From Candidatus Krumholzibacteriota bacterium (lineage in GTDB: Bacteria > Krumholzibacteriota > Krumholzibacteriia > LZORAL124-64-63), in contig JBDLKA010000010.1 in NCBI GenBank assembly GCA_039714075.1, positions 1 through 58,621 of the forward strand: a DNA stretch of 58,621 nt. Direction: 5' to 3'. Position numbers and translations under genes: made by a program. This document shows, in pieces, positions 1 to 41,532 of this stretch. The notes beneath the pieces are model-generated. The model worked only from the letters and a program-made list of their open reading frames with translations. It ran no database searches and was not told where the DNA came from. Numbering within the stretch: position 1 is the stretch's first letter; each line of letters begins with the position of its first letter.

Positions 1-686
1 TTCTGGTTACCCTGGTCATCAGGGGCATCAGGGGCATCAGGGGCATCCTGGGCTTGAGTTCCGGCCTCCTGCTTGAGCAGTTTGGGTTCGGCGCCGGGCA
101 GTTTGGCGGCGACATGGACGATGCGCTGCACCGTGGTCGCCAAAGTCGCCACCGCCAGGAACCAAAGGGCCAGTTCCACGGCCCAGCGGCCCAGCAGCAG
201 GGCCACCGTCAGGATGATCACCCGCTCGGTCCGCTGCAGGAACCCCACGTTACAGGTTTCCCCCACGCCTTCGGCGCGGGCCCGGACATAACTCGTGGTC
301 AGGCTGCCCACCACCACCCAGGTGATCAGGACCAGGGCCACGGCGTCGCCGCCGTAGGGCCGGGTGGCGAAATACCAGGTCAGCCCCGCGAAAAGGAAGG
401 CCTCGCCCAGGCGATCGAAGCAGGAGTCGAGGAAGGCTCCGCGGCGGGAAACCGTTCCCTGCATCCGGGCCAGATCGCCGTCGAGCATATCGAAGCCGGA
501 CCCGACGGCAAACACGATGGCCCCGAAAAAGAGTGCCCCCTGCGCCACGATCCAGCCGGAAACGGCGGTGATGAACAGTCCGACGAGGGAAACCGTCAAC
601 GGGGTCAAACCCAACCCGTCCAGCATCAGGACCAGGGGCCGCAGCCTGCCGCGGGCGGAATCCTTGATTTCCGTGAAACCCATCAT
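1..686 (-). CDS. CDP-alcohol phosphatidyltransferase, PI/PIP-synthase-like (partial, runs off left edge)
   Basis: Not in ORF track; hand translation from ATG at 686 gives MMGFTEIKDSARGRLRPLV...FDMLDGDLARMQGTVSRRGAFLDSCFDRLGE...SYVRARAEG...QRTER. CDP-OH transferase motif present, hydrophobic helices, GGAGG RBS, ATGA overlap with the rsmI stop. Confidence 0.9.
   Translation of the reverse strand, partial: MMGFTEIKDSARGRLRPLVLMLDGLGLTPLTVSLVGLFITAVSGWIVAQGALFFGAIVFAVGSGFDMLDGDLARMQGTVSRRGAFLDSCFDRLGEAFLFAGLTWYFATRPYGGDAVALVLITWVVVGSLTTSYVRARAEGVGETCNVGFLQRTERVIILTVALLLGRWAVELALWFLAVATLATTVQRIVHVAAKLPGAEPKLLKQEAGTQAQDAPDAPDAPDDQGNQ
17..47. repeat. 9-bp tandem repeat (aggggcatc x3) encoding Asp-Ala-Pro repeats in the C-terminal tail of the transferase
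   Basis: catc aggggcatc aggggcatc aggggcatc read directly. Confidence 0.8.
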
Positions 687-3809: not shown

Positions 3810-5152
3810 GATTCGCCGCCGGCGAAGAATTCCGCGACCTCGTCCACCGCGTCCGGCAGGGCGAAAACGACCACCTCGTCGCCCGCGGTCAGGATCGTAT
3901 CACCGCGTGGGGTAACGACCCGGCCCCGCTTGAGCACCGCCCCGATGACGGCGTGGCTGGGAAACCGGAGGTCCATCAGCTTGTCCCCCAGCCAGGAGCA
4001 CTTGTCGCCCACGCGCAGCTGCAGGATTTCCGCGCCGGTGTGCCCCAGGTTCTCCGCGTCGATGACCGCGCCCCGCTTGACGAAGCGGCCGATCCAGGTC
4101 GAGGTGGACAGCCGGGGTGAAATCGCCGAATCCACTCCCAGAAGCGGCAGCAGGGGCACGTAATCCGGCCGGTTGACCAGGCAGACGGTCTTGCCCGCCC
4201 CGTGGTGGCGCGCCAGAAGGCAGGCCATGATGTTCGTTTCCTCGTCGCTGCTTACCGAAACGAACCCGTCCATTTCGCTGACGCCTTCGCTTTCCAGCAG
4301 CTCGGTGTCCGAGCCTTCGCCGTGCAGGACCATCGCCTTGCGGAGCTGCTCGGACGCGCGCCGGCATTTCTCCTCGTTGCGGTCGATGATCTTGACCTTG
4401 ACCCCGGCGGCCAGGAGATCCCGGGCCAGCTCGCGCCCCATGGCGTTGGCCCCGACGATCATCACCCGGGACAGACGCCGCTCGGCGGAACGGAAATAGA
4501 TGAGGGAGCGGTCGACGGTCCGCCGGGTGCCGGCCAGGAACACCTGGTCGTCGGCCATGATCACCGTGCCCCCGTCCGGGATGAGGGTTTCCTCGCCACG
4601 GACGATCGTTGTCACCAGGGCGATGTTGCTGCCCAGGGTCCGGTTGATCTCGGCCAGGGTCAGTCCTTCCACCTTCGACCCCGGTTCCACCCGCGCGCCG
4701 ATGATGCGAACCTTCCCCCCCGCGAATTCATGGACTTCGGTGGCCCCGGTCTGGAACAGGACCTCGCGGATGGCGTGAACCGCCTCGTGCAGGGGGTTGA
4801 TGGCCAGATCGATTCCATCGAGCAGCAGCCGGTGGTCCTGGTAGAAGTGCTCCTGGCGGACCCGGGCGACCTTGACCCGGGCGCCCAGGGCGTGGGCGGT
4901 CTGGCAGGCGATGATGTTGATTTCGTCCCGGTCGGTGACGGCCGCGAACAGGTCGCAGTCCTTCATCCCTATCTCGTTCAAAACGGAAGGGCTGACCCCG
5001 TTGCCGACCACGAACCGGCAATCCAGGTGCTCGCTGACCTTGTCCACCTGTTCCTGGTCCATCTCCACCAGGATCAGGTCGTGTTCCCGGCGGGTGATGA
5101 TCCGGGCCAGCTGGAAGCCGACCGCCCCGGCACCGATAATGACGATTTTCAC
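3806..5152 (-). CDS. trkA: Trk potassium uptake NAD-binding subunit
   Basis: Two RCK_N ([16 protein letters not shown]) and two RCK_C domains; overlaps trkH. Confidence 0.95.
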
Positions 5153-6201
5153 GACCCGGCTCCCGTGAATGAGTTGAGGACCTCGACGGCGCGGTCGATA
5201 TCCGCGTCTTCATGTTCGAGATGGGGAACCAGCCTGACCCGGCCCGGTCCGAAACCCACCCCCAGCACGCCGCAACCTTCCAGGTGGCCCAGGAGGGTCT
5301 CGTCCTGACCCTGGCCGGCCACATCGATGATCACGATGTTGGTGTCCACCGGATGATTCACCTTCAGGCCCGGATGGTCAAGTCCCATAGCCAGGGCCCG
5401 GGCATGGGCGTGGTCCACCGCCAGTCTGTCCAGGTGATGTTCCAGGGCGTAGAGGCAGGCCGCGGCCAGGATTCCCGCCTGGCGCATGCCTCCACCCAAC
5501 ATTTTGCGGAAGCGGTGGGCCCGGACGATGGTCGCCGCGTCGGCGGCCAGGACCGAACCGACCGGGGCGCCCAGAGCCTTGGAAAAACACACGCTCACCG
5601 AATCCACCGGGGCGGCCAGGTCGGCCAGGGACAAACCCGTCGCCACGTGGGCGTGCCACAGACGCGCGCCGTCCAGATGCACCTTCAAGTCCCTGGCGCG
5701 GGCTTCGCGGGCAATCTCCACCACGCTGTCCTGGGGCATAATCCGCCCGCCGGCCCGGTTGTGGGTGTTTTCCAGACACACCATCGCCGGCACGGCGCAG
5801 TGGACGTTGTCGGGGTTCAGCGCCGCGGCGACCAGGGGCCAGTCAAGCAGGCCGCCGGGAGCCGGGACGCAGGTCACCAGCAATCCGCTCAGGGCGGCGG
5901 GTCCGCCGGCTTCGTACCGGTAGATGTGGGCGCCGTCCTCCAGGACGATCTGGTCGCCCGGCCGCGTCTGGGCCCGCAGGGCCAGCTGGTTGCCCATGGT
6001 CCCGCTGGGTACGAACAGGGCGGCTTCGGTGCCCAGCATTTCCGCGACCACGTCCTGCAGCCGGTTGACGGTGGGATCGTCACCGAAGACATCGTCGCCG
6101 ACCTCGGCCTCGGCCATCGCCCGGCGCATGCCCGCGGTGGGGCGCGTCACGGTGTCGCTGCGCATATCGATCGGTTTTGTGGATGGGAAAGGGGATGCCA
6201 T
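5149..6201 (-). CDS. ltaE: Low-specificity L-threonine aldolase
   Basis: [62 protein letters not shown]. Confidence 0.95.
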
Positions 6202-20292: not shown

Positions 20293-23200
20293 CTAGTTGC
20301 TCAGCCGGGTGCCAACGACCACCGGCGCGGTTTTTTCTTCCATTTTCCCGGTCTCGACATCGACGATCGAAAGATGCAGGACGTACATGCCGGCCTTGAC
20401 CCTTTCGAAGAATGAATCCCGCCCGTCCCAGAGGATGGGATTGCCGGGATGTTCCGCGGAGCCTGGTGGATCGCCGTCGAAGCGGCTGTCGAACAGGGTT
20501 ACAACCACTCTTCCCTCGAGATCGAACACCCGCAGGCGGGTTTCGCTTTCGTCGGAAGGTGGCGCTGCAAACCGGATGGGAAACTCCTCGCCGAGATCCG
20601 GCAGGAAGGTCCGGGCGGGAACCCACAGCGGCAGGTCATAGACCGGGAGAATCTCCCCTTCGGAAGGATCGAACGCTCCCGGATTGCTGGATCTCGAAAT
20701 GAAGTTCCGGTTGAAGTTTTCGCTGGTCTCATCCCGGCCGTCCACACCGTTGCTGCCGGATGAGGCCTGGCCGTATTCCCACACACCCTCGCGCTGGTAC
20801 GAATTCCCCGCAGCATTCGCGGTTGTGAAGGCGCGGGATTCATTGGTTCCTTTTTCCGACAGGTATTCATGTCCACCGATGGTCTCACCCGTCTTGTCGA
20901 AGAACATTTCGGAAATGCCCGAGGCCGTGTCTTTCCAGGCGAAGACATCGACATCCGTGACCTTGTCCTCGCCGGCCAGGAAATGGTAGAGAACGACGGT
21001 CTCGGCCTCGTTTTCCAGCGTGGGTGTCGAGGTGGCGCTGTGGATACTGTTGTTGGCGGCGTCGCCGAATACGGGCTCCAAAGTGCCCTCGGTGCCGGAC
21101 CCGGTACCGTCGTCGAACAGGACCCAGTCAGGCGGAAATCCGTGCTCCTGTGCGAAGGTCCCACTGCCGGCCATGGCAACCACAATGGTACCGTTGGCCA
21201 TGATGGAGGAACCATCGGGGAACTGGGCATGGAAATCACCATCGGCACCTCCGCCTATGGTCGCGACCGAGGGATTCCCTTCCGCAATTTTCCAGTAGAA
21301 CTGCCCGCTATCCCTGTTGACGGCATCCGTCAGGAAAAACCCGAAGAGGTCCACCTTCTGGTTGTTCGGATTGTTGATTTCGATGAAATCAATCGAGGTC
21401 CCGCTGGTGCTGACTTCGGAAATCAGCAGCTTGGCCGCCTCGCCGACCACCGGGGGTCCGGACGGTCCGGACGGATCGTAGGGCATCATAGCGAAGGTGG
21501 TGTTGAAATTCTCGCTCGTCTCGTCACGACCATCCACCCCGTTGCTGCCCGTGGGGGTCTGGTCGCCCTCCGTGGGATCGGTGCGGTGATAGGAGTTCCC
21601 GAATTCGTTCTGCGTCCCGAAAGCATCGTTCACGTTGGTGCCGTTTTCCGGCAGATAGGAATGGCTGCCGACGGTCACGCCCGTCTTGTTGAAAAAGATG
21701 CTGGTAGTAGTCGAGGAGGGATCTTTCCACGCGAAAACGTCGATGTCGGTTACTTTGTCCTCGCCCGTGACGAAGTGATAGAGGATCACCGTCTCGGCCC
21801 CGTTGGTCAGGGTGGGTGTCGAACTGCTGCTGATGATGCTGTTGTTACCCTCGACGCCGAAAATGGGGAGCATATCCGGTACGTCGTCCGGGGCTCCATC
21901 GTCTTCCCACAGCTCCAGATCCGGATCAAAACCGAACTGATCATTGAAGGAAATGCTGCCGGCCACCGTGACTACGATCGTATCCTTGGCCGTAATGGTG
22001 AAACCCGCAGGGAACCGAGCGTGGAAGTCGGCGAAATCACCCCCACCGACCGTCGACTGGGAGGGGTTTCCCTCAGCAATACGGTAATAGTATTGATCAC
22101 CGCTGCTGTAGTTGGCATCGGTCAGGTAATAGTCACTGAGATCCACTTCCTCGTTGCCCGGATTGTAGATCTCGATGAATTCCTGCGAGGTCCCGAGCGT
22201 GCTGATTTCCGTCAGCAACAACTTGCCCGGACCGTCTCCCGCCACGACCGGCGGACCCACAGTCCAGGAGGAAACGAAAACCGGCGACCCGGCGGGATAA
22301 ACCGCGGTGATGGCCTCGGTATTGGTGGCCACGCAGTACCAGCTCACCACTGCATTTTCCACCTGGGCCGGAACCGTGGCGGACCAATCCTCGGCATTGA
22401 CGGGGGTGCCGGCAAGAACCTGCTCCGCGCCGCCGTCAACCGAATAACGGAATTCCACGCCCGTCACTTCGTCCTGGTCGACCACCGAAGCGGTCAGGGT
22501 CACCGTCTGGCCGTCGGCGGGCTCGGCGGGGCTGAATCCCCCTCCGGTAAAAATCGGAGCAGCCGGGAAAGGCGTGTTGGCCAGCGGGGGTTCATGGCCG
22601 ACGACGGTAGGGAACGTCGTGGCCAGGTTCTCGCTGGTTTCGTCGTGGCCGCTGATGCCGTTGCCGCCGGTGGTGATTTCGGTGCCCTCATCCGCGTCGA
22701 CCCGGCGCATGACGCTGCCGAAGGTCGGTCCGGCGGCAGCCGCCGCCTCCTGGGAACCGACAGACGTATCGGCCAGATAGGTTCCGCCGCCGATTACCAC
22801 ACCGGTCTTGTCGATGCGCGGGCTGACATTGGTCCCCCACACGAGATAGTCCAGATCCTGAACCAGATCCGAGGTGCCGTCCCAGGAGTAGAGAACCAGA
22901 CTCTCGGCCTGGTCGGAAAGTTCGGGCACGTTGCCGGCCCCGCCCAGGCCGGCGTTGATCGATCCCGGGTACGGTTCCACGAGCTCCGGAACATCGTCCG
23001 GAACGGTCCCGTCCTCGAACAGCTCGAAATCGGGCTTGCGTCCGTAGGCCTCGACATACTGGGTGCTGCCTTTCAGGGAAATGGCAATGCTGTCACCCGC
23101 CGCCAGCACGAAACCCGTGGGAAACCTGGCGTGAAAATCGCCGCCCACGCCGCCGCCGGGATTGGCCGTGGCCGGATCCAGGAGGGCAATGTTGTAATAG

Positions 23201-23454
23201 TAGGTCGACGGGGCGGTCGCGCCGTCGGTGAGATAGACGTTATCCATGGGTATGGGCGACCCGGTAGGATTCACGATCTCGATGAACGGGCTGCCGAAGC
23301 TGCTGTACGGGGTCCTGGTCTTGATCAGGACCTCGCTGATGATCAGGTGATCGGCCGGAGCGGCAACAGCCGCCGGGACGATGACACCGGTTGCGATCAA
23401 AGAAAATACCAGCAACCTGAAAGCCCGGGTAATTTCCCTACGAAAACTGGACAT
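20293..23454 (-). CDS. Secreted protein with three lamin-tail-domain-like repeats, an Ig-like linker and an FlgD/T9SS-like C-terminal domain
   Basis: Signal peptide; 3x [LxIxE..FIEIxNP..YLTD..DFHAxFP..ETSEN]; C-terminal LRVFDLEGRVV...WDGRD...GMYVL. Confidence 0.8.
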   Translation of the reverse strand: MSSFRREITRAFRLLVFSLIATGVIVPAAVAAPADHLIISEVLIKTRTPYSSFGSPFIEIVNPTGSPIPMDNVYLTDGATAPSTYYYNIALLDPATANPGGGVGGDFHARFPTGFVLAAGDSIAISLKGSTQYVEAYGRKPDFELFEDGTVPDDVPELVEPYPGSINAGLGGAGNVPELSDQAESLVLYSWDGTSDLVQDLDYLVWGTNVSPRIDKTGVVIGGGTYLADTSVGSQEAAAAAGPTFGSVMRRVDADEGTEITTGGNGISGHDETSENLATTFPTVVGHEPPLANTPFPAAPIFTGGGFSPAEPADGQTVTLTASVVDQDEVTGVEFRYSVDGGAEQVLAGTPVNAEDWSATVPAQVENAVVSWYCVATNTEAITAVYPAGSPVFVSSWTVGPPVVAGDGPGKLLLTEISTLGTSQEFIEIYNPGNEEVDLSDYYLTDANYSSGDQYYYRIAEGNPSQSTVGGGDFADFHARFPAGFTITAKDTIVVTVAGSISFNDQFGFDPDLELWEDDGAPDDVPDMLPIFGVEGNNSIISSSSTPTLTNGAETVILYHFVTGEDKVTDIDVFAWKDPSSTTTSIFFNKTGVTVGSHSYLPENGTNVNDAFGTQNEFGNSYHRTDPTEGDQTPTGSNGVDGRDETSENFNTTFAMMPYDPSGPSGPPVVGEAAKLLISEVSTSGTSIDFIEINNPNNQKVDLFGFFLTDAVNRDSGQFYWKIAEGNPSVATIGGGADGDFHAQFPDGSSIMANGTIVVAMAGSGTFAQEHGFPPDWVLFDDGTGSGTEGTLEPVFGDAANNSIHSATSTPTLENEAETVVLYHFLAGEDKVTDVDVFAWKDTASGISEMFFDKTGETIGGHEYLSEKGTNESRAFTTANAAGNSYQREGVWEYGQASSGSNGVDGRDETSENFNRNFISRSSNPGAFDPSEGEILPVYDLPLWVPARTFLPDLGEEFPIRFAAPPSDESETRLRVFDLEGRVVVTLFDSRFDGDPPGSAEHPGNPILWDGRDSFFERVKAGMYVLHLSIVDVETGKMEEKTAPVVVGTRLSN

Positions 23455-26143: not shown

Positions 26144-26290
26144 TTCGCCCTCCTTATCGATGGTGGGTGTTTCCTGTGTGTTGATATATGATAAAGTCCA
26201 AAGCGCAGGTTTCCAACCCGGATTATCACCTCAGGGGGACAAATTCCCTTCCTTAACGGGATTCCGGGGGAAGTCGGGGGAGGTATTTCC

Positions 26291-27190
26291 ATGAGTACGA
26301 TTCGACAGCCGGTCCTCGGCGGCACCTGGTATCCGGCCGACCCGGTGGACCTGGCCGGCACCGCCGACGGATTCATCGCCGGGGCCGATCCGGGCGTCCG
26401 GCCGGCCGGCCGCCCCCTGCTGGCGGTGGTTCCCCACGCCGGTTACGTGTACAGCGGCCCGACCGCGGGCAAGTTGTTCGGGCTGTTGCGCGATACCCCT
26501 GTGCGGCGCGTATTTATTCTGGCTCCCAACCACCGGGTCGCCCTGGACAGGATCGCCCTGAGCGGCGCCGCTGCCTATGCCACCCCCCTGGGAGCGGTTG
26601 AGCTGGACCAGGCAGCCATCAGGCAACTGGAAGCAAATGAATCATTTACCGTAAACAACCAGGCGCATGCCCAGGAACATGCCGTCGAAATACAGTTGCC
26701 CCTGATGCAACGGACCTGGCCGGAGGCGGTGCCCCGGATCGTTCCCCTGCTGGTGCCGTCGATGCCCCCGGACGTGGCCCGGGAAGCGGCGGCCGCCCTG
26801 GCCCGTTTGGCCGATGACGGCACCCTCTTCCTGGTTTCCAGCGATTTCACCCACTACGGGGCCTCCTATGGCTATGTGCCCTTCACCACCGACCTGCCGG
26901 CCTCCCTGGAGGAACTGGATTCCGGGGCGATCCTGAAAATCCTGGCCGGTGACGCCGACGGTCTGCGCCGGTACGGCCGCGAGACCGGGATCACCATGTG
27001 CGGTCTGGAGGCGGCGGCCATCGCCCTGGATCATGATCTGCCCGCGGGGTACGAAGCGGCCCTGATCGACTACACCCGTAGCGGGGACCGGGACGGGGAC
27101 TATTCTCTTTCGGTAAGCTACGCTTCCATCCTGATTTGTGCCGGCGACGGCGACGCTCCGGTCGCGGGAGGTGACGGCCATGACCACTGA
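26291..27190 (+). CDS. amrB: AmmeMemoRadiSam system protein B (MEMO1 family)
   Basis: RQPVLGGTWYP, PHAGYVYSG, EHAVEIQLP, SSDFTHYG, ITMCG. Confidence 0.92.
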   Translation: MSTIRQPVLGGTWYPADPVDLAGTADGFIAGADPGVRPAGRPLLAVVPHAGYVYSGPTAGKLFGLLRDTPVRRVFILAPNHRVALDRIALSGAAAYATPLGAVELDQAAIRQLEANESFTVNNQAHAQEHAVEIQLPLMQRTWPEAVPRIVPLLVPSMPPDVAREAAAALARLADDGTLFLVSSDFTHYGASYGYVPFTTDLPASLEELDSGAILKILAGDADGLRRYGRETGITMCGLEAAAIALDHDLPAGYEAALIDYTRSGDRDGDYSLSVSYASILICAGDGDAPVAGGDGHDH

Positions 27191-27761
27191 CAAAACCGGT
27201 GCCAGAGACCTTTTGGAAGAGGAAAGGCTTTTCCTGAGGGAGATGGCCAGGCAGGCGGTGGAAGCCGCGGTCCACGGCCGGCCCGCCCCGGACGCAGCCG
27301 CCCTGGCCGCCGAATCCGGAATCGACCTCGACCCCCGGCTGAACTCCCATCGCGGCGCCTTCGTCACTTTGACTTCCGGCGGCAGATTGCGCGGGTGCAT
27401 CGGGTACATCGAGGGCATCAAACCCCTGGTGGACGCCGTGGCGGACAACGGGCGCAGCGCGGCGGTGCGGGATCCCCGGTTTGCCCCCGTTTCCCCCGGG
27501 GAACTCCCGGAAATCCATATCGAGGTCTCCGCCCTGACCCCCATGGTACCGGTCGCCGGACCCGGAGACATCGTCATCGGACGCCACGGCGTGGTCCTGG
27601 TCAAAGAGGGCCGGCGGGCCGTGTTCCTGCCCCAGGTGGCCCCCGAGCAGGGATGGGACGTCGACACCACCCTGACCCATCTGGCCCTCAAAGCTGGGCT
27701 GGAAGCGGACGCCTGGCGTCAGGGCGCCGAATTCCTGGTTTTCGAAGCTGATGTTTTCTAG
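27180..27761 (+). CDS. amrA: AmmeMemoRadiSam system protein A (AMMECR1 family)
   Basis: GAFVTL, LRGCIG, DPRF, GRHG, FLPQVA, LALKAG; ATG at 27180. Confidence 0.92.
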   Translation: MTTDKTGARDLLEEERLFLREMARQAVEAAVHGRPAPDAAALAAESGIDLDPRLNSHRGAFVTLTSGGRLRGCIGYIEGIKPLVDAVADNGRSAAVRDPRFAPVSPGELPEIHIEVSALTPMVPVAGPGDIVIGRHGVVLVKEGRRAVFLPQVAPEQGWDVDTTLTHLALKAGLEADAWRQGAEFLVFEADVF

Positions 27762-27881: not shown

Positions 27882-29066
27882 ATGGGTCTTCTCGACAAAA
27901 TCCAGGATTTCCAACAGGCCAAGAAATTGATGGCTGCGGACCTCTACAACTACTTCCGGGTCATTGAGTCCGCCCAGGAGAATACCGTCCGGTTCCAGGG
28001 CAAGGAAATCATCATGCTGGGCAGCAACAACTACCTGGGGCTGACCAACCACCCCCGGGTAAAAGAGGCCGCCCAGAACGCCATCAGCAAGTATGGCACC
28101 GGTTGCGCGGGATCCCGCTTCCTGAACGGAACCCTGGACATACACATCGAACTCGAGGAAAAACTGGCGGCGCTGGTGGGCAAGGAAAAGGCCCTGGTCT
28201 TTTCGACGGGGTTCATGGTCAACCAGGGCGTGCTCAGTTCCCTGGCTGGACGCAAGGAATCCATCATCGTCGATCGTACGGACCACGCCTCGATCATCGA
28301 CGGCGCCCGCCTGTCCTTCGCCGATGTCCGCAAATTCCGCCACAACGACATGGAGAACCTGGAGCTGGTCCTCGAGAGCGAGAAGGACACCAACAAGCTG
28401 ATCATCGTCGACGGTGTCTTCTCCATGGAAGGCGATATCGCCAAACTGCCGGCCATCGTGGAATTGGCCGGCAAGTACGACGCCGTGCTGATGGTGGACG
28501 ACGCCCACGGCGTCGGCGTCCTCGGTGAAAACGGACGGGGCACCGCCAACCACTTCGGCCTTACCGACCAGGTCGATCTGATCATGGGCACCTTCAGCAA
28601 ATCCCTGGCTTCGGTGGGAGGATTCGTCGCCGGCGACGCCGACGTCATCCACTACATCCAGCACCTGGCCCGCGCCCTGATGTTCTCGGCCAGCATGCCC
28701 CCCGCATCGGTGGCTTCGGTTTCCGCGGCGGTCGACGTGATGCTCGAGGAATCCTGGCGGCATGAAGCCCTGTGGCACAACAACGACCTGATGCGCGAAC
28801 GCCTGGACGACGCCGGCTTCGACACCGGGCCCAGCGAAACACCCATCATCCCGGCGGTGGTCGGGGAAGACATGGTGGCTTTCACCATGTGCCGGCGCCT
28901 GATCGACGAGGGCGTGTTCGTCAACCCGGTGGTCAGCCCCGCCGTCGAACCCGGCAACGCGCTGATCCGCCTCAGCCTGATGGCGACCCACACCGAGGAC
29001 GAAATCAACCAGGCCATGGACATCATGGTCAAGGTGGGGCGCGAACTGGGCATCATTCCCGGTTGA
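27882..29066 (+). CDS. spt: Serine palmitoyltransferase (alpha-oxoamine synthase family)
   Basis: GSNNYLGLTNHP, YGTGCAGSRFLNGTLDIH, DHASIIDG, DGVFSMEGD, DDAHG, MGTFSKSLAS (PLP Lys), LIRLSLMATH; resembles Bacteroidota SPT; gene context supports the call. Confidence 0.8.
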   Translation: MGLLDKIQDFQQAKKLMAADLYNYFRVIESAQENTVRFQGKEIIMLGSNNYLGLTNHPRVKEAAQNAISKYGTGCAGSRFLNGTLDIHIELEEKLAALVGKEKALVFSTGFMVNQGVLSSLAGRKESIIVDRTDHASIIDGARLSFADVRKFRHNDMENLELVLESEKDTNKLIIVDGVFSMEGDIAKLPAIVELAGKYDAVLMVDDAHGVGVLGENGRGTANHFGLTDQVDLIMGTFSKSLASVGGFVAGDADVIHYIQHLARALMFSASMPPASVASVSAAVDVMLEESWRHEALWHNNDLMRERLDDAGFDTGPSETPIIPAVVGEDMVAFTMCRRLIDEGVFVNPVVSPAVEPGNALIRLSLMATHTEDEINQAMDIMVKVGRELGIIPG

Positions 29067-29107
29067 CGGCCATTCGCCGGCGGCGCCCGATTCGCGGCCG
29101 AACTGCG

Positions 29108-29151
29108 ACCGGGAGGATCTCGAATTCGTTCCGGAACCTCCCGGTTTTTTT
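29108..29151 (+). terminator. Terminator/attenuator-like hairpin between spt and the GNAT gene
   Basis: accgggagg...cctcccggt followed by a T-run. Confidence 0.55.
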
Positions 29152-29168
29152 CGACAAGGGAGAACGCG

Positions 29169-30293
29169 ATGGCCGTGACGATATCGCCCGTCGGCAACGA
29201 TAAATACGCCCTCCGGGAATTCCTGGACGTCCCCTACCGCATCTACCGCGACGATCCCCACTACGTGTTTCCCCTCCTGGACGAGATGAAACACTTTCAC
29301 GACAAGAAGAAGAACCCCTTCTACCGGCACGCGGTCGCCGAATTGTGGCTCGCCCGCGATGCCGGCCAGGTCGTCGGCCGCATCGGGGCGTGCGTGGACA
29401 GCTACAACAACGAGCACCAGAACGAGAAGGTCGGTTTCTTCGGCTTCTACGAGGTCGACGACAACCCGGCCGCCGCGGCCGCGCTGCTGGAAACCGCGCG
29501 CGCCTGGATCGCCGACCAGGGCATGCACACCATGCGCGGGCCGGGCTGCTTCACCTCGAACCACGATTGGTACGGCCTGCAGGTGGATGGAAAGTTCAAC
29601 CGTCCCGTCATCGGCATGCCCTACAACCCCCGGTACTACGAAAAGCAGTTCGAGAAATTCGGCCTGGCCGGCGCCAAGGACCTTTTCGCCTGGGAACTCC
29701 GGACCAAGGGGCAGTTGCCTGAAAAGATGCAGCGCCTCATCGACCGGATACTGGCCCGGCCGGGATTGGCCATCCGCTCCTTCGACATGAAGAACTTCAC
29801 CGCCGAGGCCTCGCTGGTCCGCGACCTCTACAACCGGACCTGGAGCGAGAACTGGGGCTTCATCCCCCTGGACGACGAGGACTTCTCCTACATGGCCAAG
29901 GACATGAAGTCGATGGTCGATCCGGAATACCTGCTGATCGCCGAGATGGAAGGTGTGCCCATCGGGTTTTCGCTGACCATCCCCGACTTCAACCAGGCCC
30001 TGCAGCCGCTGCGGGGCAAACTGCTGCCATTCGGCTGGTTGAAGTTCCTTCTGGGCAAACGGAAGATCGACTATGCGCGCACCATCCTGATGGGCGTTCT
30101 GCCGGAATTCCGCAAACTCGGGGTGGACATGGCCATGGTCTACCAGACCATGCGGGCCGGATTCGCCAAGGGCGTCACCTCGGGTGAGTGCTCCTGGATC
30201 CTGGCCGACAACGTACCCATGAACCGGATCCTGGAGGGATACGGGGCGGATATGTACAAGACCTATCGCATCTACGAGAAACAGGTGGGGTGA
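29169..30293 (+). CDS. Tandem-GNAT N-acyltransferase, bacterial ceramide synthase (bCerS)-like
   Basis: VVGRIGA, GFFGFYE, MRGP, MPYNPRYY, WSENWGFIP, PDFNQ, GVLPEFR.LG, SWILADN, YKTYRIYEK; directly follows spt. Confidence 0.75.
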   Translation: MAVTISPVGNDKYALREFLDVPYRIYRDDPHYVFPLLDEMKHFHDKKKNPFYRHAVAELWLARDAGQVVGRIGACVDSYNNEHQNEKVGFFGFYEVDDNPAAAAALLETARAWIADQGMHTMRGPGCFTSNHDWYGLQVDGKFNRPVIGMPYNPRYYEKQFEKFGLAGAKDLFAWELRTKGQLPEKMQRLIDRILARPGLAIRSFDMKNFTAEASLVRDLYNRTWSENWGFIPLDDEDFSYMAKDMKSMVDPEYLLIAEMEGVPIGFSLTIPDFNQALQPLRGKLLPFGWLKFLLGKRKIDYARTILMGVLPEFRKLGVDMAMVYQTMRAGFAKGVTSGECSWILADNVPMNRILEGYGADMYKTYRIYEKQVG

Positions 30294-31309
30294 AGCCCTC
30301 CGACGGCAGCTCCGGCACCGGTGGTCCGGTCATCGCCCTGACCGGCGCGACCGGGTTTCTGGGCAGCCATATCGCCGACACCCTGTTGGCCCGGGGTTTC
30401 GGTGTGCGGGCCTCGATCCGGCCGACCAGCAGCCTGCGCTGGCTGGACAACAAGCCCGTGGAAACCCGGCGGACCGATCTGACGGACCCCGACGACTGCC
30501 GCGGGTTTTTGGCCGGCACTTCCGGGCTGATCCATTGCGCGGGGGTGGTCTCCGCCCCCGCCAAAACCATCTACCACGTGGCCAACGTGACCAGCACCGC
30601 CCGCCTGCTTGAGGCCGCCGCCGCGGCCTGGAAAGAACAACGGGACACCAAAGCCTTCGTGCTGATTTCGAGTCTGGCCGCACACGGGCCGGCCGGACTG
30701 GAACGTCCCGCCCTGGAATCCGACCCCTGTCGGCCCATCACCGAGTACGGCCGTTCGAAACTGGCGGCCGAGGAACTCGTCTCGGCCGGAATGTGGCCCT
30801 TTCGCACGGCCACCCTGCGGCCCCCGTCGCTGTACGGTCCCCGGGACCGGGAGTTTCTGCCCTTGATCAAATTGGCCACCCACGGTTGGACAGGCCGTCT
30901 CGGGCGCCGGATGACCGGGCTTTCCCTGGTGGATGGGCGCGACGCCGCCGCCGCCGCGGTCGATCTGCTGGAAACCGACGCCGCCTCCGGTACGTTTTTC
31001 GTGGACGACGGCAAAACCGGCTACGACTGGTCCGCCCTGAACGCCGCCCTGGAAAAAATGGCCGGCCGCAGGGTCCGCACCATCCAGCTGCCTTTGGTAG
31101 TGCTGAAGATCCTGTCCTTTCTGGCCGGACGATCCCGGGCCGCCCGGTCACCGGTTCTGAACCGCGACCGGATTCGCGATCTGCAGACCGAAGGCTGGGT
31201 CTGCGACGGAGGCCGTCTGGCGGCGGCCACCGGATTCAGGGCCCGGCGGGACGCCGCCCGGGGATTTGCCGAGACCCTGGATTTCTACCGCGAGGAAGGC
31301 TGGCTTTGA
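30290..31309 (+). CDS. NAD-dependent epimerase/dehydratase family, ceramide reductase (CerR)-like
   Basis: TGATGFLG, HCAG, ISSLAA, YGRSKLAAE, RPPSLYGPRD; GTG start overlaps the GNAT stop. Confidence 0.75.
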   Translation: MKPSDGSSGTGGPVIALTGATGFLGSHIADTLLARGFGVRASIRPTSSLRWLDNKPVETRRTDLTDPDDCRGFLAGTSGLIHCAGVVSAPAKTIYHVANVTSTARLLEAAAAAWKEQRDTKAFVLISSLAAHGPAGLERPALESDPCRPITEYGRSKLAAEELVSAGMWPFRTATLRPPSLYGPRDREFLPLIKLATHGWTGRLGRRMTGLSLVDGRDAAAAAVDLLETDAASGTFFVDDGKTGYDWSALNAALEKMAGRRVRTIQLPLVVLKILSFLAGRSRAARSPVLNRDRIRDLQTEGWVCDGGRLAAATGFRARRDAARGFAETLDFYREEGWL

Positions 31310-32229
31310 ACGTCCGCCGGAAACTGATCGACCTGTCCCTGCGGCGGATGAACATCGACCGCTGGGCCGTGATCTATCTGCTGATCAGCGCCTTCTACCC
31401 GGTTCTCAAACCCTCGGTGTTTCCCGACCCCTGGGCCAACGCCCTGCTGCACGGGGGCCTGGCCCTGTTCATCTGGTTCGTCCCGCCGCTCCTGCGCTGC
31501 AGCAAGCACTTTCTTTTGCGCCTGCTGGGCGAAATCTATCTGCCGTTCATCTTCCCCATGTTCTACGCGGAAATGAAGTATCTGGGCATCATCTTCTTCG
31601 ATTTCGAGAAAAGCCTGGACCCGGCGCTGATACGTCTCGAGGAATGGATCTTCGGGTTCCAGCCCAGCCTGGAATGGTCCCGCGCCTGGCCCTGGCCCTG
31701 GTTCCACGAGCTGATGGAATTCGCCTATTTCACCTACTACTTCCTGGCGGCCGGTTTCCTGCTGCTGGTATTTCGTTCACGCAATCTGGAAGATCACCAG
31801 AGGTGGGAAACGGCGCGGGCCTTCGTCCGGGACCTGAGCCTGACCATGCTGATCTGCTACACCATGTACACCCTGTTTCCCGCCTGGGGACCGAAGTATT
31901 TCCGGGCCGGCTACGTCGAGGTTCCGGGGTGGATCTTCACGGACATCATGCGCCACATCCACGAAAACGGGGCCCTGCTGGGCGCGGCTTTTCCCTCCAG
32001 CCACGTGGCCGCCTCCATGGTTCCGTGGTGGCATACCTGGAGCAACTTTCCCCGCCACCGCTGGTGGATGACCACCATCTTCGTCCTGCTGTGCATGTCC
32101 ACCGTCTACAACCGGTACCACTACGTGGTCGATGTCTTCGCGGGCCTCCTGCTCGGGGGGCTGGTCATGTATTTCGGCCACCGGTTGGGTGATGCGGCGA
32201 GGGATCGCCTGAAGTACCGCCTGCGCTAG
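31306..32229 (+). CDS. PAP2-superfamily membrane phosphotransferase, AUR1/IPT1 (inositol phosphorylceramide synthase)-like
   Basis: Multiple TM helices; LFPAWGP, AAFPSSHVA, NRYHYVVDVFAG; TTG start overlaps the upstream stop. Confidence 0.75.
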   Translation: MNVRRKLIDLSLRRMNIDRWAVIYLLISAFYPVLKPSVFPDPWANALLHGGLALFIWFVPPLLRCSKHFLLRLLGEIYLPFIFPMFYAEMKYLGIIFFDFEKSLDPALIRLEEWIFGFQPSLEWSRAWPWPWFHELMEFAYFTYYFLAAGFLLLVFRSRNLEDHQRWETARAFVRDLSLTMLICYTMYTLFPAWGPKYFRAGYVEVPGWIFTDIMRHIHENGALLGAAFPSSHVAASMVPWWHTWSNFPRHRWWMTTIFVLLCMSTVYNRYHYVVDVFAGLLLGGLVMYFGHRLGDAARDRLKYRLR

Positions 32230-32243
32230 GCCGGGGAATGAAA

Positions 32244-32271
32244 AAGGAGGTGCCTGCAGGGGCACCTCCTT
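32244..32271. terminator. Intrinsic terminator between convergent operons
   Basis: aaggaggtgcc-tgcagg-ggcacctcctt, preceded by an A-run (U-tail on the minus strand). Confidence 0.75.
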
Positions 32272-38278: not shown

Positions 38279-39271
38279 TCATTCCGGGCTCCCGGCGGAC
38301 CCTTGGTTGAAATCATGGAAGGCCGCCTGACGGGCCGCATTCTGCATGCGGTCGTGTTCCGCCGTGGACAGATCCGCGAATTCCGCGGCCCGCCGGTATT
38401 CGCCTTCCAGGTCCAGGCCGAACATGGCCCGGTCGTCGGTGTTCAGGCAGCACGGCACGCCCGCGTCCAGGATTTCCCGCAGGGGATGATCGCTCCAGGC
38501 GGAAATCCCGCCCGTCTGGACGTTGGAGCCGGGGCACATTTCCACGAACACGTCCCGCGCAGCCAAAGTGGCCAGGATCAGGGGATCCTGAACCGCCGCC
38601 AGGCCGTGCCCGATACGGTCGGCGCCGCATTCGTCGATCGCCTGCCGGATCGAATCGACCGCGGCGGCGCCCATGGCCGGCATTTCCCCCGCGTGGATGG
38701 TGACCCCGAAGCCTTCGGCCTTCACCTCGGCGAAAATATCCGCGAAATCGGCGGCCGGGCCGTCCGCCTCGTCTCCTCCGAGACCGAAGCCCACCACTCC
38801 CAGGCCGCGGCCCGCCCGGGTGGCGGCTTCCCAGGCCCGCCATCCCCAGTCGATATCCCACTGGCGCACGGCGTCCGGTATCCAGCGCATTTCCACACCG
38901 TTGGTTTCGCGCACCTCGGCGGCGGCCTCGGCCAGGGCCGACTGCACCGTCACCGGATCGATATTCCGTTTCAAAAGGACCCCGTAGGAGAGGGAGATCT
39001 CGGCATAGGCCACCCCGTCGGCCTTGAGCCTGCCGCCGAGATCCCGGGCCACGGCGTGGAAATCGCCCGGGGTGCGCAGCAGGGAGGTGACGTGTTTGAA
39101 GGCGTCCAGAAAACCGTGGAATCCCTCGAAGCGGTAGGACGATCCGTCCTCGTTCAGGACGGCCGCGGGCAGGCCCGGCTGCCCGTATTTATCAGCAAGA
39201 AGGATCAGTCGCGCGGGCGTGACTGATCCTTCCAGATGGGTATGAAGTTCGACCCGGCCGGCCGGGGTCAT
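38279..39271 (-). CDS. add: Adenosine deaminase family
   Basis: ELHTHLEGS, GLGGDE, IHAGE, RIGHG, CPGSN, LNTDD. Confidence 0.9.
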   Translation of the reverse strand: MTPAGRVELHTHLEGSVTPARLILLADKYGQPGLPAAVLNEDGSSYRFEGFHGFLDAFKHVTSLLRTPGDFHAVARDLGGRLKADGVAYAEISLSYGVLLKRNIDPVTVQSALAEAAAEVRETNGVEMRWIPDAVRQWDIDWGWRAWEAATRAGRGLGVVGFGLGGDEADGPAADFADIFAEVKAEGFGVTIHAGEMPAMGAAAVDSIRQAIDECGADRIGHGLAAVQDPLILATLAARDVFVEMCPGSNVQTGGISAWSDHPLREILDAGVPCCLNTDDRAMFGLDLEGEYRRAAEFADLSTAEHDRMQNAARQAAFHDFNQGSAGSPE

Positions 39272-41379
39272 TTCGCCAGGACCACCCTCTGGTTCAAGGC
39301 CTTCTGACCATTTTCCAGACGGATGAGATACAAACCGGACGCGGCGGACGCGCCTTGGGCCGTCCGGCCGTTCCAGGTCACGTTCTGCCAGTCGCCCGTG
39401 CCCGCGCCGTTGTACAACTCGTGCACCAGCCGGCCGCGCAGGTCCATGATCCTGACGGTGACGTTTTCCACCGGCGCGGCGCGGAAACGGATCGTCACCG
39501 CGGGATTGGCCGGATTGGGCCAGGCCGGAGCCAGGGCCAGCAGGGAACCGAAATTCAGGTGGGCAGACAGTTCACCCGGACCTGACAGGGCGTCCAGGGC
39601 GAAAGAGAAACCATCGTTCGTGACCGCCTGCAGCGAATAGCTGAGGCTGGCCGCTTTGGCGTCGGTTGCGTCGGAAAGCTGATCGAGAAAGAGGAAGCCG
39701 TCACCCGAGACGGTCAAAACACCCGGGACCTCTTCCTGACCGGTCCGCGGCGCTCCGGTCCAGATGGCCGCTTCATCGATGACCGCGCCCTTGCTGTCGC
39801 GGATCTGGCGGAACAGCTCCACCTCTTCGAACTCCACAGCAGGCAGGGCGAAGGCGAAGGACAGCCGGACGAGGTCATCGCCGGCGGAGGCGGTCCAGGC
39901 GGCGGACCAGTGCGAGAAGAAGGCCGGGACCACGACGTTGCTGGAATCCTGCAGGTGGAGGAAACCTGTCACCTCGTTGTTCAACTTGTTGCCGTCGGGA
40001 GCCCCGACGACCAGATCCCAGGCACCGTCCCCGTCGAAATCGCCTCCTGAAGCCACGGCCCAGGCATAGTGGTCATCGGCCTCGGCGCCCACCTTCATGG
40101 GCACATTGCCCTTGATGTCCAGGTTGGCGGCGTTGGTTTCGACGCTGGCGCCTTCCAGCACGTAGGCCTTGCCGCAGTCGGAAGCGGGTTGGTCGTGAAA
40201 GGGCGCCCCGATCAGAACATCTGCGGAGCCGCTTTCGGTAAAGTCCCGGAGCCGGGCCAGTGAATACCCGAAGTTGTCACCGGCGATTTCGCCCAGGACA
40301 AAATGATCACCCGAAGCCGTGGGGCTGAAACTGTCACCGTAGACGATCTCCACCCGGCCCGCGGCCGCGCCGCCGTCGTTGTTGAAGGGACCGCCGATGG
40401 CCAGGTCGGTCAGATTGCTGCCGCCCCAGTCGTCCACGCCGCGAACCGCAAAACCGTACTGGGTGAAGGGGGCCGTGCCGCCGCTGCCGATTTCATGATC
40501 GGGCGTACTGTTCGGGCTGGCGCCGCCTTCGTAGACGTAGACCGCCCCGGCATCGGTGCCCCCGTGGGTGTCGTTCAGCGGAGCGCCAACGGCGACACAA
40601 TCGTCCGCGCCCAGGAAATTGCCGGCATCGGTCACGGACCAGCCGAAGGCGTTGTTGGCGAGTTCACCCGTCAGGGTGAGGGCGGCGCCCAGGTCGTTGC
40701 TGACACCACCGGCCGCGCCGAAGATGACATAGGCATTGCCCGGACGGCCGGGCAGGCCGGCGTCGAGAGCCGGAGCGCCGACGATGAAATCATCAACACC
40801 GTCACTGTTGAAATCGCCCGCCGCGGAAAGGGAAAATCCGAAATTATCTCCACCAAGTTCCCCGATGATTTCCACCGGGGTGATGGACGCGGGATCGGGG
40901 TCGCCGTAAAAGACATAGACCTTGCCCTTTTTGGCGCCCGTGTCGTCGGAGTCGGGCGCACCGACCGCCCAGTCGGGCAGGCCGTCGGCATTGACGTCGC
41001 CGATCCGGGCCACCGCGAACCCGAATTTTTCCTGGTTCACGCCTTCCCACTGGAAATCCGGAGCGAGCGCCAGCTCGGAATCGCCCCACCACATGAACAC
41101 GGCCCCGTGGTCGCCCCCGTTGGGCGCGCCGGGCGCACCGACCAGGAACTCCCAGTGCCCGTCACTGTTCAGATCCTCCAACTCGGACAGGGCCGCCCCG
41201 AAAAGAGTTCCGCCGGAGCCGGTCTCGTCCGTCAGATGCACCGCCCCCCAGGCGGGGAGAACCGGGATCAGCAGGGCGCTAAAAAGAAGCATGGGAAAGA
41301 ACACGGCACGCCTGTTGCTAGCTTGGATCAATAACTTGGAAAACAACGCAGAACCTCCAAATCGGTACAGGATGCCCAT
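39268..41379 (-). CDS. Secreted FG-GAP (integrin-alpha-like) seven-blade propeller protein with FlgD/T9SS-like C-terminal domain
   Basis: Seven FG..GAP repeats, several with DxNxDG loops; C-terminal WPNPANP...IMDLRGRLV...WNGR...SGLYLIRL; start may be 41292. Confidence 0.85.
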   Translation of the reverse strand: MGILYRFGGSALFSKLLIQASNRRAVFFPMLLFSALLIPVLPAWGAVHLTDETGSGGTLFGAALSELEDLNSDGHWEFLVGAPGAPNGGDHGAVFMWWGDSELALAPDFQWEGVNQEKFGFAVARIGDVNADGLPDWAVGAPDSDDTGAKKGKVYVFYGDPDPASITPVEIIGELGGDNFGFSLSAAGDFNSDGVDDFIVGAPALDAGLPGRPGNAYVIFGAAGGVSNDLGAALTLTGELANNAFGWSVTDAGNFLGADDCVAVGAPLNDTHGGTDAGAVYVYEGGASPNSTPDHEIGSGGTAPFTQYGFAVRGVDDWGGSNLTDLAIGGPFNNDGGAAAGRVEIVYGDSFSPTASGDHFVLGEIAGDNFGYSLARLRDFTESGSADVLIGAPFHDQPASDCGKAYVLEGASVETNAANLDIKGNVPMKVGAEADDHYAWAVASGGDFDGDGAWDLVVGAPDGNKLNNEVTGFLHLQDSSNVVVPAFFSHWSAAWTASAGDDLVRLSFAFALPAVEFEEVELFRQIRDSKGAVIDEAAIWTGAPRTGQEEVPGVLTVSGDGFLFLDQLSDATDAKAASLSYSLQAVTNDGFSFALDALSGPGELSAHLNFGSLLALAPAWPNPANPAVTIRFRAAPVENVTVRIMDLRGRLVHELYNGAGTGDWQNVTWNGRTAQGASAASGLYLIRLENGQKALNQRVVLAK

Positions 41380-41532
41380 GAAACCGGACGACAGATCAAA
41401 AAATCCCTGTTCCGGAAGGGCTTTCTGCAATGGTTACGTTAATGATAGCACGGAACGACCCTTGTTTAACAGACTCAAGACCTTTTTCTGGACAAGAAAA
41501 CCCTTGCTTGAAGCGGGGTATCTGGTGCAGTT

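Follow-up and report, generated by a model that had tools for sequence, protein, structure and literature searches.

The window analysed here is the whole of contig JBDLKA010000010.1 (58,621 nucleotides, 63% G+C; C10 in our numbering) from assembly GCA_039714075.1 of a Candidatus Krumholzibacteriota bacterium, a marine and uncultured member of the little-known class Krumholzibacteriia; the assembly comprises 4.06 Mb in 260 contigs and is 92% complete. On its plus strand, positions 27882-32229 hold four genes, encoding an alpha-oxoamine synthase (AOS), a tandem acyltransferase of the GNAT fold, an extended short-chain dehydrogenase/reductase (SDR), and an integral membrane protein of the PAP2_3 family. 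Judged by sequence, this four-gene set very probably serves to synthesise ceramide and to attach a phosphate-linked head group to it by means of a relative of yeast Aur1. We give the proposal as a whole, a ceramide operon with an Aur1-like transfer for which phosphatidylinositol (PI) is the most probable donor, a probability of roughly 0.55; taken by itself, a phosphosphingolipid made by a transferase is the likely product.

From the gene families, folds, catalytic residues, conserved linkage, and lipid-gene inventory described below, we infer the following catalytic steps and head group. The AOS, as a serine palmitoyltransferase (Spt), would convert serine and an acyl thioester to 3-ketosphinganine; the tandem GNAT would N-acylate this intermediate, in the role of the bacterial ceramide synthase bCerS; and the SDR would act as CerR and reduce the 3-keto group. 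The PAP2_3 protein, with its catalytic loops on the periplasmic side, would then use a His-His-Asp triad to move the phospho-head group of a glycerophospholipid to the 1-hydroxyl of ceramide, releasing diacylglycerol. With PI as the donor, the product would be inositol phosphoceramide (IPC).

Score margins were used to assign the Spt, GNAT, SDR, and PAP2 proteins to families. The top NCBIfam model for the AOS is NF047600 (serine palmitoyltransferase, CFB type) with 597.2 bits, compared to 443, 417, and 401 bits for the BioF/Kbl-family, Kbl, and BioF models, respectively. Among solved structures, the closest are the serine palmitoyltransferases 3a2b and 8guh (471.5 bits each), while the best BioF/Kbl entry scores 323.9 bits, Kbl 287, and ALAS 217. 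By sequence, the enzyme is therefore nearest to characterised serine palmitoyltransferases rather than to BioF/Kbl, as had been proposed in an initial reading of this DNA from its sequence alone (hereafter, the sequence-only reading). An AOS with a different specificity would instead yield a non-sphingolipid amino lipid, either by using cysteate (capnine/sulfonolipid) or alanine or glycine (1-deoxy bases), or because it is a divergent Kbl or BioF. Consistent with this, the score falls under the equivalog cut-off of NF047600 (640 bits), even though this is the best model by about 150 bits, and the cysteate-C-fatty acyltransferase 28eh is a recognisable relative (229.3 bits). However, the characterised serine palmitoyltransferase scores twice as high as 28eh, NF047600 outscores the BioF and Kbl models by about 150-200 bits, and the genome encodes two more AOS paralogues (contigs C22 and C50; 37% and 35% identity to the Spt) that can serve housekeeping roles. 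An Aur1-type transferase would, moreover, presumably need the 1-hydroxyl found in serine-derived bases. We consider an amino lipid of this kind very improbable.

The GNAT gene has two weak GNAT matches in Pfam (19.8 and 18.7 bits, both under the cut-offs) and no match to the NCBIfam models, and its label in a protein atlas is merely "N-acetyltransferase family protein". Its AlphaFold model (pLDDT 91.5) is most similar to the tandem-repeat GNAT structures 7q3a (E 2.3e-15, TM 0.62-0.67) and 2wpw (E 2e-15), which agrees with the earlier description of the second gene as a tandem GNAT. The SDR contains the glycine-rich motif TGATGFLGSH (residues 18-27) and has a weak match, not among its top ones, to the NDUFA9 chains 7ar7_P and 7a23_T (26 bits over residues 3-306). 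Fold and gene context suggest that the GNAT is a bCerS and the SDR a CerR; the clustering of both with Spt across phyla (see below) upholds the view that they are its partners in the ceramide pathway.

The last gene had been proposed to be Aur1-like, with a search against PF14378 (PAP2_3) set beforehand as a check. The protein passes this model with 66 bits (E 5.2e-18, cut-off 27) over profile positions 2-189 of 190, and it marginally passes PF14360, the sphingomyelin-synthase C-terminal domain (29.7 bits, cut-off 27). The FPSSH and HYxxD motifs reported for it are present as AFPSSH (residues 228-233) and HYVVD (residues 272-276). We aligned 31 sequences, consisting of this protein, a representative of its family with 58% identity, and 29 homologues that are distant, and found P230, S231, H233, H272, and D276 to be invariant in all of them. 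In a search of solved structures with the profile derived from this alignment, the best relative is yeast Aur1 (E 1.4e-8), and AFPSSHV and HYxxD align with Aur1 residues 226-313, the stretch holding H255, H294, and D298; in yeast, mutation of any member of this triad abolishes IPC synthesis (PMC13133130).

Structural comparison also places Aur1 nearest. With the AlphaFold model of the PAP2 protein (pLDDT 93.2) as query, Foldseek returns two Aur1 entries first (E 2.4e-5 and 4.5e-5), and VIA-align ranks the Aur1 structures 9vj4 and 9ivc first, with Z scores of 19.7 (252 residues, model residues 18-296) and 19.2 (274 residues, model residues 1-301). The Aur1 match covers the three N-terminal helices, whereas phosphatases align only from about residue 102. 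Core-only matches were obtained for LpxE (Z 15.8), G6PC1, and PgpB (Z 14-15.8 for the three) and for SMSr (Z 12.9). Canonical PAP2 lipid phosphate phosphatases have a C1 motif, KxxxxxxRP, alongside the C2 and C3 motifs. A search of the PAP2 protein for the K-x6-RP pattern gave no match, while C2 (PSSH) and C3 (HYVVD) are present; by the C1 motif, the protein would fall outside the canonical phosphatases. As to topology, the side with the termini has 12 lysines and arginines among its 38 residues, and the catalytic-loop side has 8 among 86. Because the lysine/arginine-rich side bears both termini, the positive-inside rule predicts that the catalytic loops are periplasmic, which fits both the lumenal active site of Aur1 and the periplasmic location of CerR in Caulobacter (PMC11087976).

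Most PAP2 members are phosphatases that use the same His-His-Asp triad (PMC13133130), raising the prospect that the protein is a hydrolase of ceramide-1-phosphate, a sphingoid-base phosphate, phosphatidylinositol phosphate (PIP), undecaprenyl diphosphate, or lipid A. The strength of the LpxE, G6PC1, and PgpB matches to the C-terminal core would suit such an activity, as would the weak NCBIfam matches of the homologues, which are to LpxE and undecaprenyl-diphosphatase models (16-19 bits). Set against these are the missing C1 motif, the rank of Aur1 above every phosphatase with the three N-terminal helices included, the association with ceramide genes in 57 of the 71 distant loci surveyed below, and the presence of a separate PgpA-family phosphatase in the genome. 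A PIP phosphatase in particular is disfavoured by gene distribution: within the class, the PAP2 gene is limited to genomes bearing the cassette, while PIP synthase and MIPS are class-wide. Hydrolysis is thus an unlikely function, and an Aur1-like transfer to ceramide is the reading we prefer.

The genome contains a second PAP2_3 gene on contig C7 (28100-32000; locus L119, 4102-8611, minus strand), encoding a 350-residue protein with a PF14378 score of 77 bits and 27% identity to the PAP2 protein of the operon. Its reading frame overlaps those of the epimerase-family SDR genes on either side, of which the upstream one encodes a protein 31% identical to the SDR of the operon. The group is preceded by an alpha/beta hydrolase gene and followed by a gene for a CAAX-protease-like (Rce1-like) protein, with no Spt or GNAT nearby. 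Such paralogues were found in only some relatives, and this one could act on the same lipids as the operon. A 676-residue protein, P0125, was considered as an SDR-PAP2 fusion (47% and 40% identity to the SDR and PAP2 proteins of the operon) and rejected as a probable frameshift artefact of the assembly, due to frameshifted-looking stretches inside and at the end of its SDR half.

The four genes are bound together by their arrangement. As described in the sequence-only reading, they are co-oriented and the last three are translationally coupled; the coordinates, the strands, and both four-base overlaps can be seen directly in the sequence. At the GNAT/SDR junction the overlap is GTGA, with the GTG start of the SDR gene at 30290 and the TGA stop of the GNAT gene at 30291-30293; at the SDR/PAP2 junction it is TTGA, with the TTG start of the PAP2 gene at 31306 and the TGA stop of the SDR gene at 31307-31309. 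The TTG start is credible because the residues following it are conserved, the alignments of relatives beginning at query residues 1-4.

To follow this arrangement within the class, we compared 41 Krumholzibacteriia genomes (this one, 24 of the same family, and 16 of other families), of which 32 are at least 90% complete. Every one of the 24 family relatives carries the PAP2 gene, as does, with a weak match, one of the 16 genomes of other families; the GNAT gene is likewise found in 24 of 24, with one clear case (G034) among the 16 others. The order Spt-GNAT-SDR-PAP2 is kept in all 20 loci that were fetched, from 20 of the 24 family genomes that carry the PAP2 gene. The closest relatives of the PAP2 gene belong to Candidatus Krumholzibacteriia, bearing out the suggestion that the host is not a member of the Bacteroidota. 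In G034, the sole out-of-family genome with a cassette (C6:181685-186727), genes for a DUF2270 membrane protein, an Spt-like enzyme, a GNAT, an SDR, and a PAP2 protein follow one another in this order. This cassette is divergent (39% identity for the GNAT, 33% for the PAP2 protein), which hints at either a separate acquisition or an old divergence.

Conservation of the four-gene order, which the sequence-only reading had proposed to survey, was also followed beyond the class. A PAP2-motif pattern scan of species-representative genomes yielded 80 loci, the best matches to the motif of this PAP2 subfamily, of which 71 are outside the Krumholzibacteriia; because the loci were chosen by this motif, the linkage count describes the subfamily and not PAP2_3 proteins generally. 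The PAP2 proteins of the 71 outside loci are 26-40% identical to the one in the window. At least one homologue of a ceramide partner is encoded within the fetched flanks in 57 of these loci (GNAT in 50, SDR in 30, Spt in 26, and all three in 18), with a median gap of 120 bases to the nearest partner; of the 14 loci with no partner, 10 extend for less than 3.5 kb to one or both sides of the PAP2 gene. According to the record labels, the loci derive from Verrucomicrobiota, Gemmatimonadota, Phycisphaerales, Holophagaceae, Cloacimonadota, Bacteroidota, and a deltaproteobacterium. The order Spt-GNAT-SDR-PAP2 recurs in Gemmatimonadota, Phycisphaerales, Holophagaceae, and the deltaproteobacterium; Verrucomicrobiota have Spt-SDR-PAP2 with the GNAT gene inverted, Bacteroidota have PAP2-GNAT, GNAT-PAP2, or GNAT-SDR-PAP2, and Cloacimonadota have GNAT-PAP2. 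Gene orders have thus been shuffled with linkage retained, and therefore argue for a shared function. The four-gene arrangement is beyond chance, and these distant loci speak for it more strongly than the family loci do.

The lipid genes of the genome point to a donor for the head group. It encodes MIPS (324 bits), CdsA (210 bits), and, at the left edge of the window, a PIP-synthase-like protein that scores 135.5 bits with NF045883, 134.8 with the archaetidylinositol-phosphate synthase model, and 26.2 with pgsA. The full-length orthologue of this PIP-synthase-like protein in another class genome (G015) matches solely PIP/PI synthases among solved structures (5d92, 86.8 bits; 6h5a, 76.6 bits). 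The gene probably provides the PI that would serve as donor. The PgpA-family phosphatase mentioned above (124.8 bits) belongs to the same family as BT_1525, the PIP phosphatase of Bacteroides (PMC9246714). Phosphatidylserine decarboxylase (PF02666) was found in none of the 41 class genomes, and no PgsA-like gene was found in this genome, where the best pgsA score, 26 bits, falls short of the cut-off of 109. Only two matches to PF01066 (CDP-alcohol transferase) are present here; the 24 family relatives have one to three each, none above 61 bits, with a single match in 12 of the 24. PF01066 matches of 92-118 bits occur in nine of the 16 genomes from other families; the three that were sampled are all PgsA-like (49-109 bits), and strong PgsA-like genes are confined to families f3, f4, f5, and f7. 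PI is the likeliest donor because, by elimination, it is the head-group glycerophospholipid that the organism is predicted to make. The product in this organism would then most probably be IPC, although for inositol phosphate as the head group, taken singly, we put the chances at even. Membranes based largely on inositol lipids may be a feature of the class.

Several observations weigh against the proposal. The Spt falls short of its equivalog cut-off, as noted, and the bCerS and CerR assignments are drawn from fold and gene context. The count of 20 conserved loci in 20 family genomes is weak by itself, since the flanks (MetRS, M1 peptidase, second SDR) are syntenic as well. The PAP2 protein is not an orthologue of BT_1522, the Aur1 homologue of Bacteroides thetaiotaomicron, because its score with the BT_1522 model NF052609 is 19.1 bits, the cut-off being 480; with the same model, the C7 paralogue and seven homologues that are linked to the cluster in other phyla reach 24.3 bits at best or give no match. 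The PAP2 protein thus appears Aur1-like in every feature examined, yet outside the BT_1522 equivalog family. With respect to the donor, the PIP-synthase-like gene is under the curated cut-off (170 bits) in all 41 class genomes, and it and MIPS occur (41 of 41 and 40 of 41 genomes) regardless of the cassette; being nearly universal, the two are non-discriminating, and their co-variation with the cassette inside the class was set aside as a line of evidence. Families f2 and f6 have no strong PgsA-like matches and yet are without the cassette, save for G034. Of 15 cassette-bearing genomes sampled from other phyla, four have a MIPS match, which is strong in three (two Gemmatimonadota and one other bacterium) and partial, at 65 bits, in one; MIPS was not found in the remaining 11, whose completeness is not given and among which are an isolate-type Polaribacter assembly and two Verrucomicrobiota. 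With MIPS in so few of these genomes, the PAP2 family at large cannot be PI-specific, and donor specificity may not track gene inventory. Finally, a gene missing from this genome is not proven absent, because the assembly is 92% complete.

These observations bear on a further alternative, in which ceramide is made but the PAP2 protein moves another head group: phosphoethanolamine from phosphatidylethanolamine (PE), phosphoglycerol from phosphatidylglycerol (PG), or a group supplied through a second CDP-alcohol transferase cluster. The 11 genomes in which MIPS was not found indicate that most relatives cannot depend on self-made PI, and the marginal pass of PF14360 and the structural match to SMSr point in the same direction. 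The cluster in question, on contig C26, combines a CDP-alcohol transferase with an NTP transferase and an aminotransferase and could supply a polar group. Donors of this type are, on the other hand, difficult to reconcile with the class-wide lack of phosphatidylserine decarboxylase matches and with a best PgsA score of 26 bits here, when three sampled sister-family genomes have a PgsA-like gene. The PI-specific Aur1 also surpasses the PE-specific SMSr as a structural match (Z 19.7 versus 12.9), though fold rank is not the same as specificity. On balance, we regard a different head group as rather unlikely, and retain PI as the most probable donor. Of the earlier suggestion of a PI-based, IPC-type head group, the plausibility of PI is sustained by the inositol-lipid gene set; the head group itself is not established, considering the 4 of 15 genomes with MIPS elsewhere.

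In the C26 cluster (2490-5833; locus L122), the genes lie on one strand and encode a HisC-like aminotransferase, a 300-residue CDP-alcohol transferase, an NTP transferase, and a LysE-type exporter. The CDP-alcohol transferase is weakly similar to PIP/archaetidylinositol-phosphate synthases (52 bits). The cluster could serve to make another polar lipid, or a solute, by way of a CDP-activated head group.

The features of the operon, together with the PIP-synthase-like gene of the window, are listed in Table 1.

Table 1. Ceramide operon, associated RNA hairpins, and PIP-synthase-like gene in the window
Feature	Position	Strand	Basis
Spt-like AOS, predicted serine palmitoyltransferase, 394 aa	27882..29066	+	PF00155 204.5 bits; NF047600 best model
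Tandem-GNAT acyltransferase, predicted bCerS-like ceramide synthase, 374 aa	29169..30293	+	Model fold, gene context
Extended SDR / NAD epimerase-family protein, predicted CerR-like 3-keto reductase, 339 aa	30290..31309	+	PF01370 91.7 bits
PAP2_3 (Aur1-like) integral membrane enzyme, predicted ceramide phospho-headgroup transferase, 307 aa	31306..32229	+	PF14378 66 bits
Hairpin followed by seven U, terminator- or attenuator-like, in the Spt-GNAT gap	29107..29152 (approximate)	+	RNA fold
GC-rich terminator-like hairpin after the PAP2 stop, usable from either strand	32244..32271	.	RNA fold
PIP-synthase-like CDP-alcohol phosphatidyltransferase, truncated by the contig end, outside the operon	3..686	-	NF045883 135.5 bits

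The gap between the Spt and GNAT genes is 102 bases long and contains a hairpin with a stem of 10+3+3 pairs followed by UUUUUUU. This element, placed within a gene set that otherwise resembles a single operon, may reduce read-through into the GNAT, SDR, and PAP2 genes; the 111-nt intergenic piece is no more stable than its shuffles (z -0.54), and a simple scan omitted the hairpin. Among relatives, the length of this gap ranges from about 13 to about 160 bases. The hairpin past the PAP2 stop has a 12-pair stem and a folding energy of -35.3 kcal/mol (z -3.58, with 0 of 200 shuffles as stable), and the scan places it on the minus strand. A promoter scan of the plus strand upstream of Spt found no sigma-70-like site, a negative that is uninformative for this phylum.

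Upstream of the operon, two mutually overlapping plus-strand genes (26291-27761) encode a Memo-like protein (PF01875, 185 bits) and AMMECR1 (PF01871, 171 bits) and end 120 bases before Spt. Two minus-strand open reading frames in this region (26642-27691 and 26231-26626) were rejected as spurious, as their translations are Arg/Gly/Pro-rich nonsense and the real genes are the Memo-like and AMMECR1 genes; matches to the minus-strand frame in the family synteny reflect these two genes read on the opposite strand. Downstream of the operon are an SDR gene on the opposite strand and genes for an M1-type peptidase and MetRS. Elsewhere in the window, the minus strand encodes an FG-GAP repeat protein that ends in a sorting domain of type IX secretion (Por_Secre_tail; 39268-41430) and a 1053-residue protein with lamin-tail domains (20293-23454); the sorting domain is compatible with an organism of the FCB group. 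A search of sequencing runs for the organism returned three DNA datasets as its best matches, all metagenomes (marine and marine-sediment), and no RNA dataset turned up.

More broadly, the ceramide-linked PAP2_3 genes could be a single widespread family of bacterial phosphosphingolipid synthases, distinct from BT_1522 and not described in the literature we searched, with a donor that varies by lineage and is PI, giving IPC, in this Krumholzibacteriia family; we offer this generalisation tentatively and consider it doubtful. If it is true, these cells, seemingly without routes to PE and PG, would have anionic membrane lipids consisting mainly of PI and the corresponding ceramide lipid, a lipid logic close to that of fungi. 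The relatives without MIPS (Bacteroidota, Verrucomicrobiota, and Cloacimonadota) would then be candidates for encoding ceramide phosphoethanolamine or phosphoglycerol synthases. For these, our literature search found no gene assignment, and a preprint on the cardiolipin synthase of B. fragilis assigns no ceramide phosphoethanolamine synthase (PMC12132519). The attachment of a phosphate head group to bacterial ceramide is genetically settled just for the inositol lipid of Bacteroides. The compact cassette with its Aur1-like enzyme offers a candidate for this step that can be tested directly. Genomes with the inositol pathway, such as this one, and those in which MIPS was not found (11 of 15 elsewhere) provide a natural experiment on donor specificity. 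Because Spt, bCerS, CerR, and an Aur1 homologue in bacteria were already known, the gain is moderate. New here are the occurrence in one more lineage of phylum rank and a set of lipid genes from which one donor can be favoured. Literature searches for a PAP2 gene as part of a bacterial ceramide cluster, and for Krumholzibacteriota together with sphingolipids, found nothing; supplements were outside these searches, and the 38 phyla of a Black Sea study may include the Krumholzibacteriota.

Genomic surveys have inferred Spt, bCerS, and CerR in about 40 phyla, often clustered (PMC11334938), and the operon resembles the ceramide pathway of Caulobacter crescentus, for which the reaction order and enzyme location have been described and CerR is NDUFA9-like (PMC11087976). 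The same three classes, an AOS/pyridoxal phosphate enzyme, a GNAT-type protein, and an NDUFA9-like extended SDR, are clustered in both. The characterised members from Caulobacter and Bacteroides are CCNA_01212 and BF9343_4218 for bCerS and CCNA_01222 and BF9343_4240 for CerR; the published threshold for homology to them is E <= 1e-30 at a coverage of at least 50% (PMC11334938). Unlike in Caulobacter, the Spt is of the Bacteroidota (CFB) type (597 bits with NF047600 versus 318 with the alphaproteobacterial NF047603), the window has no dedicated acyl carrier protein or acyl-acyl carrier protein synthetase genes beside the operon, and a PAP2_3 gene is present as a translationally coupled fourth member. 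This fourth protein shares with yeast Aur1 (9vj4, 9ivc) a near full-length fold, the His-His-Asp triad in the same motifs, the lack of a C1 motif, and catalytic loops predicted to be non-cytoplasmic. It differs in being just 14-17% identical and in its length (307 residues, versus 401 for the Aur1 PDB chain). To our knowledge, Kei1, the partner subunit of Aur1, is not known in bacteria; no Kei1 search was made here. Sphingomyelin synthase and SMSr (PF14360, PAP2_C; 8ijq) are ceramide phospho-headgroup transferases of the same superfamily, to which the marginal Pfam pass and the Z score of 12.9 attest, but SMSr is a weaker structural match than Aur1, and it uses PE with a different proposed catalytic scheme (PMC13133130).

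The sequence-only reading had presented an Aur1-type route as a contrast to the Bacteroidota. This contrast fails, since B. thetaiotaomicron itself uses an Aur1 homologue, BT_1522, shown by knock-out to add phosphoinositol to dihydroceramide and acting together with MIPS, PIP synthase, and a PgpA-like PIP phosphatase (PMC9246714). The Krumholzibacteriota genome contains the same supporting gene set (MIPS, a PIP-synthase-like protein, and a PgpA-family phosphatase). The two systems differ in their gene arrangement: BT_1522 is located in an inositol cluster, while the PAP2 gene described here is located in the ceramide operon.

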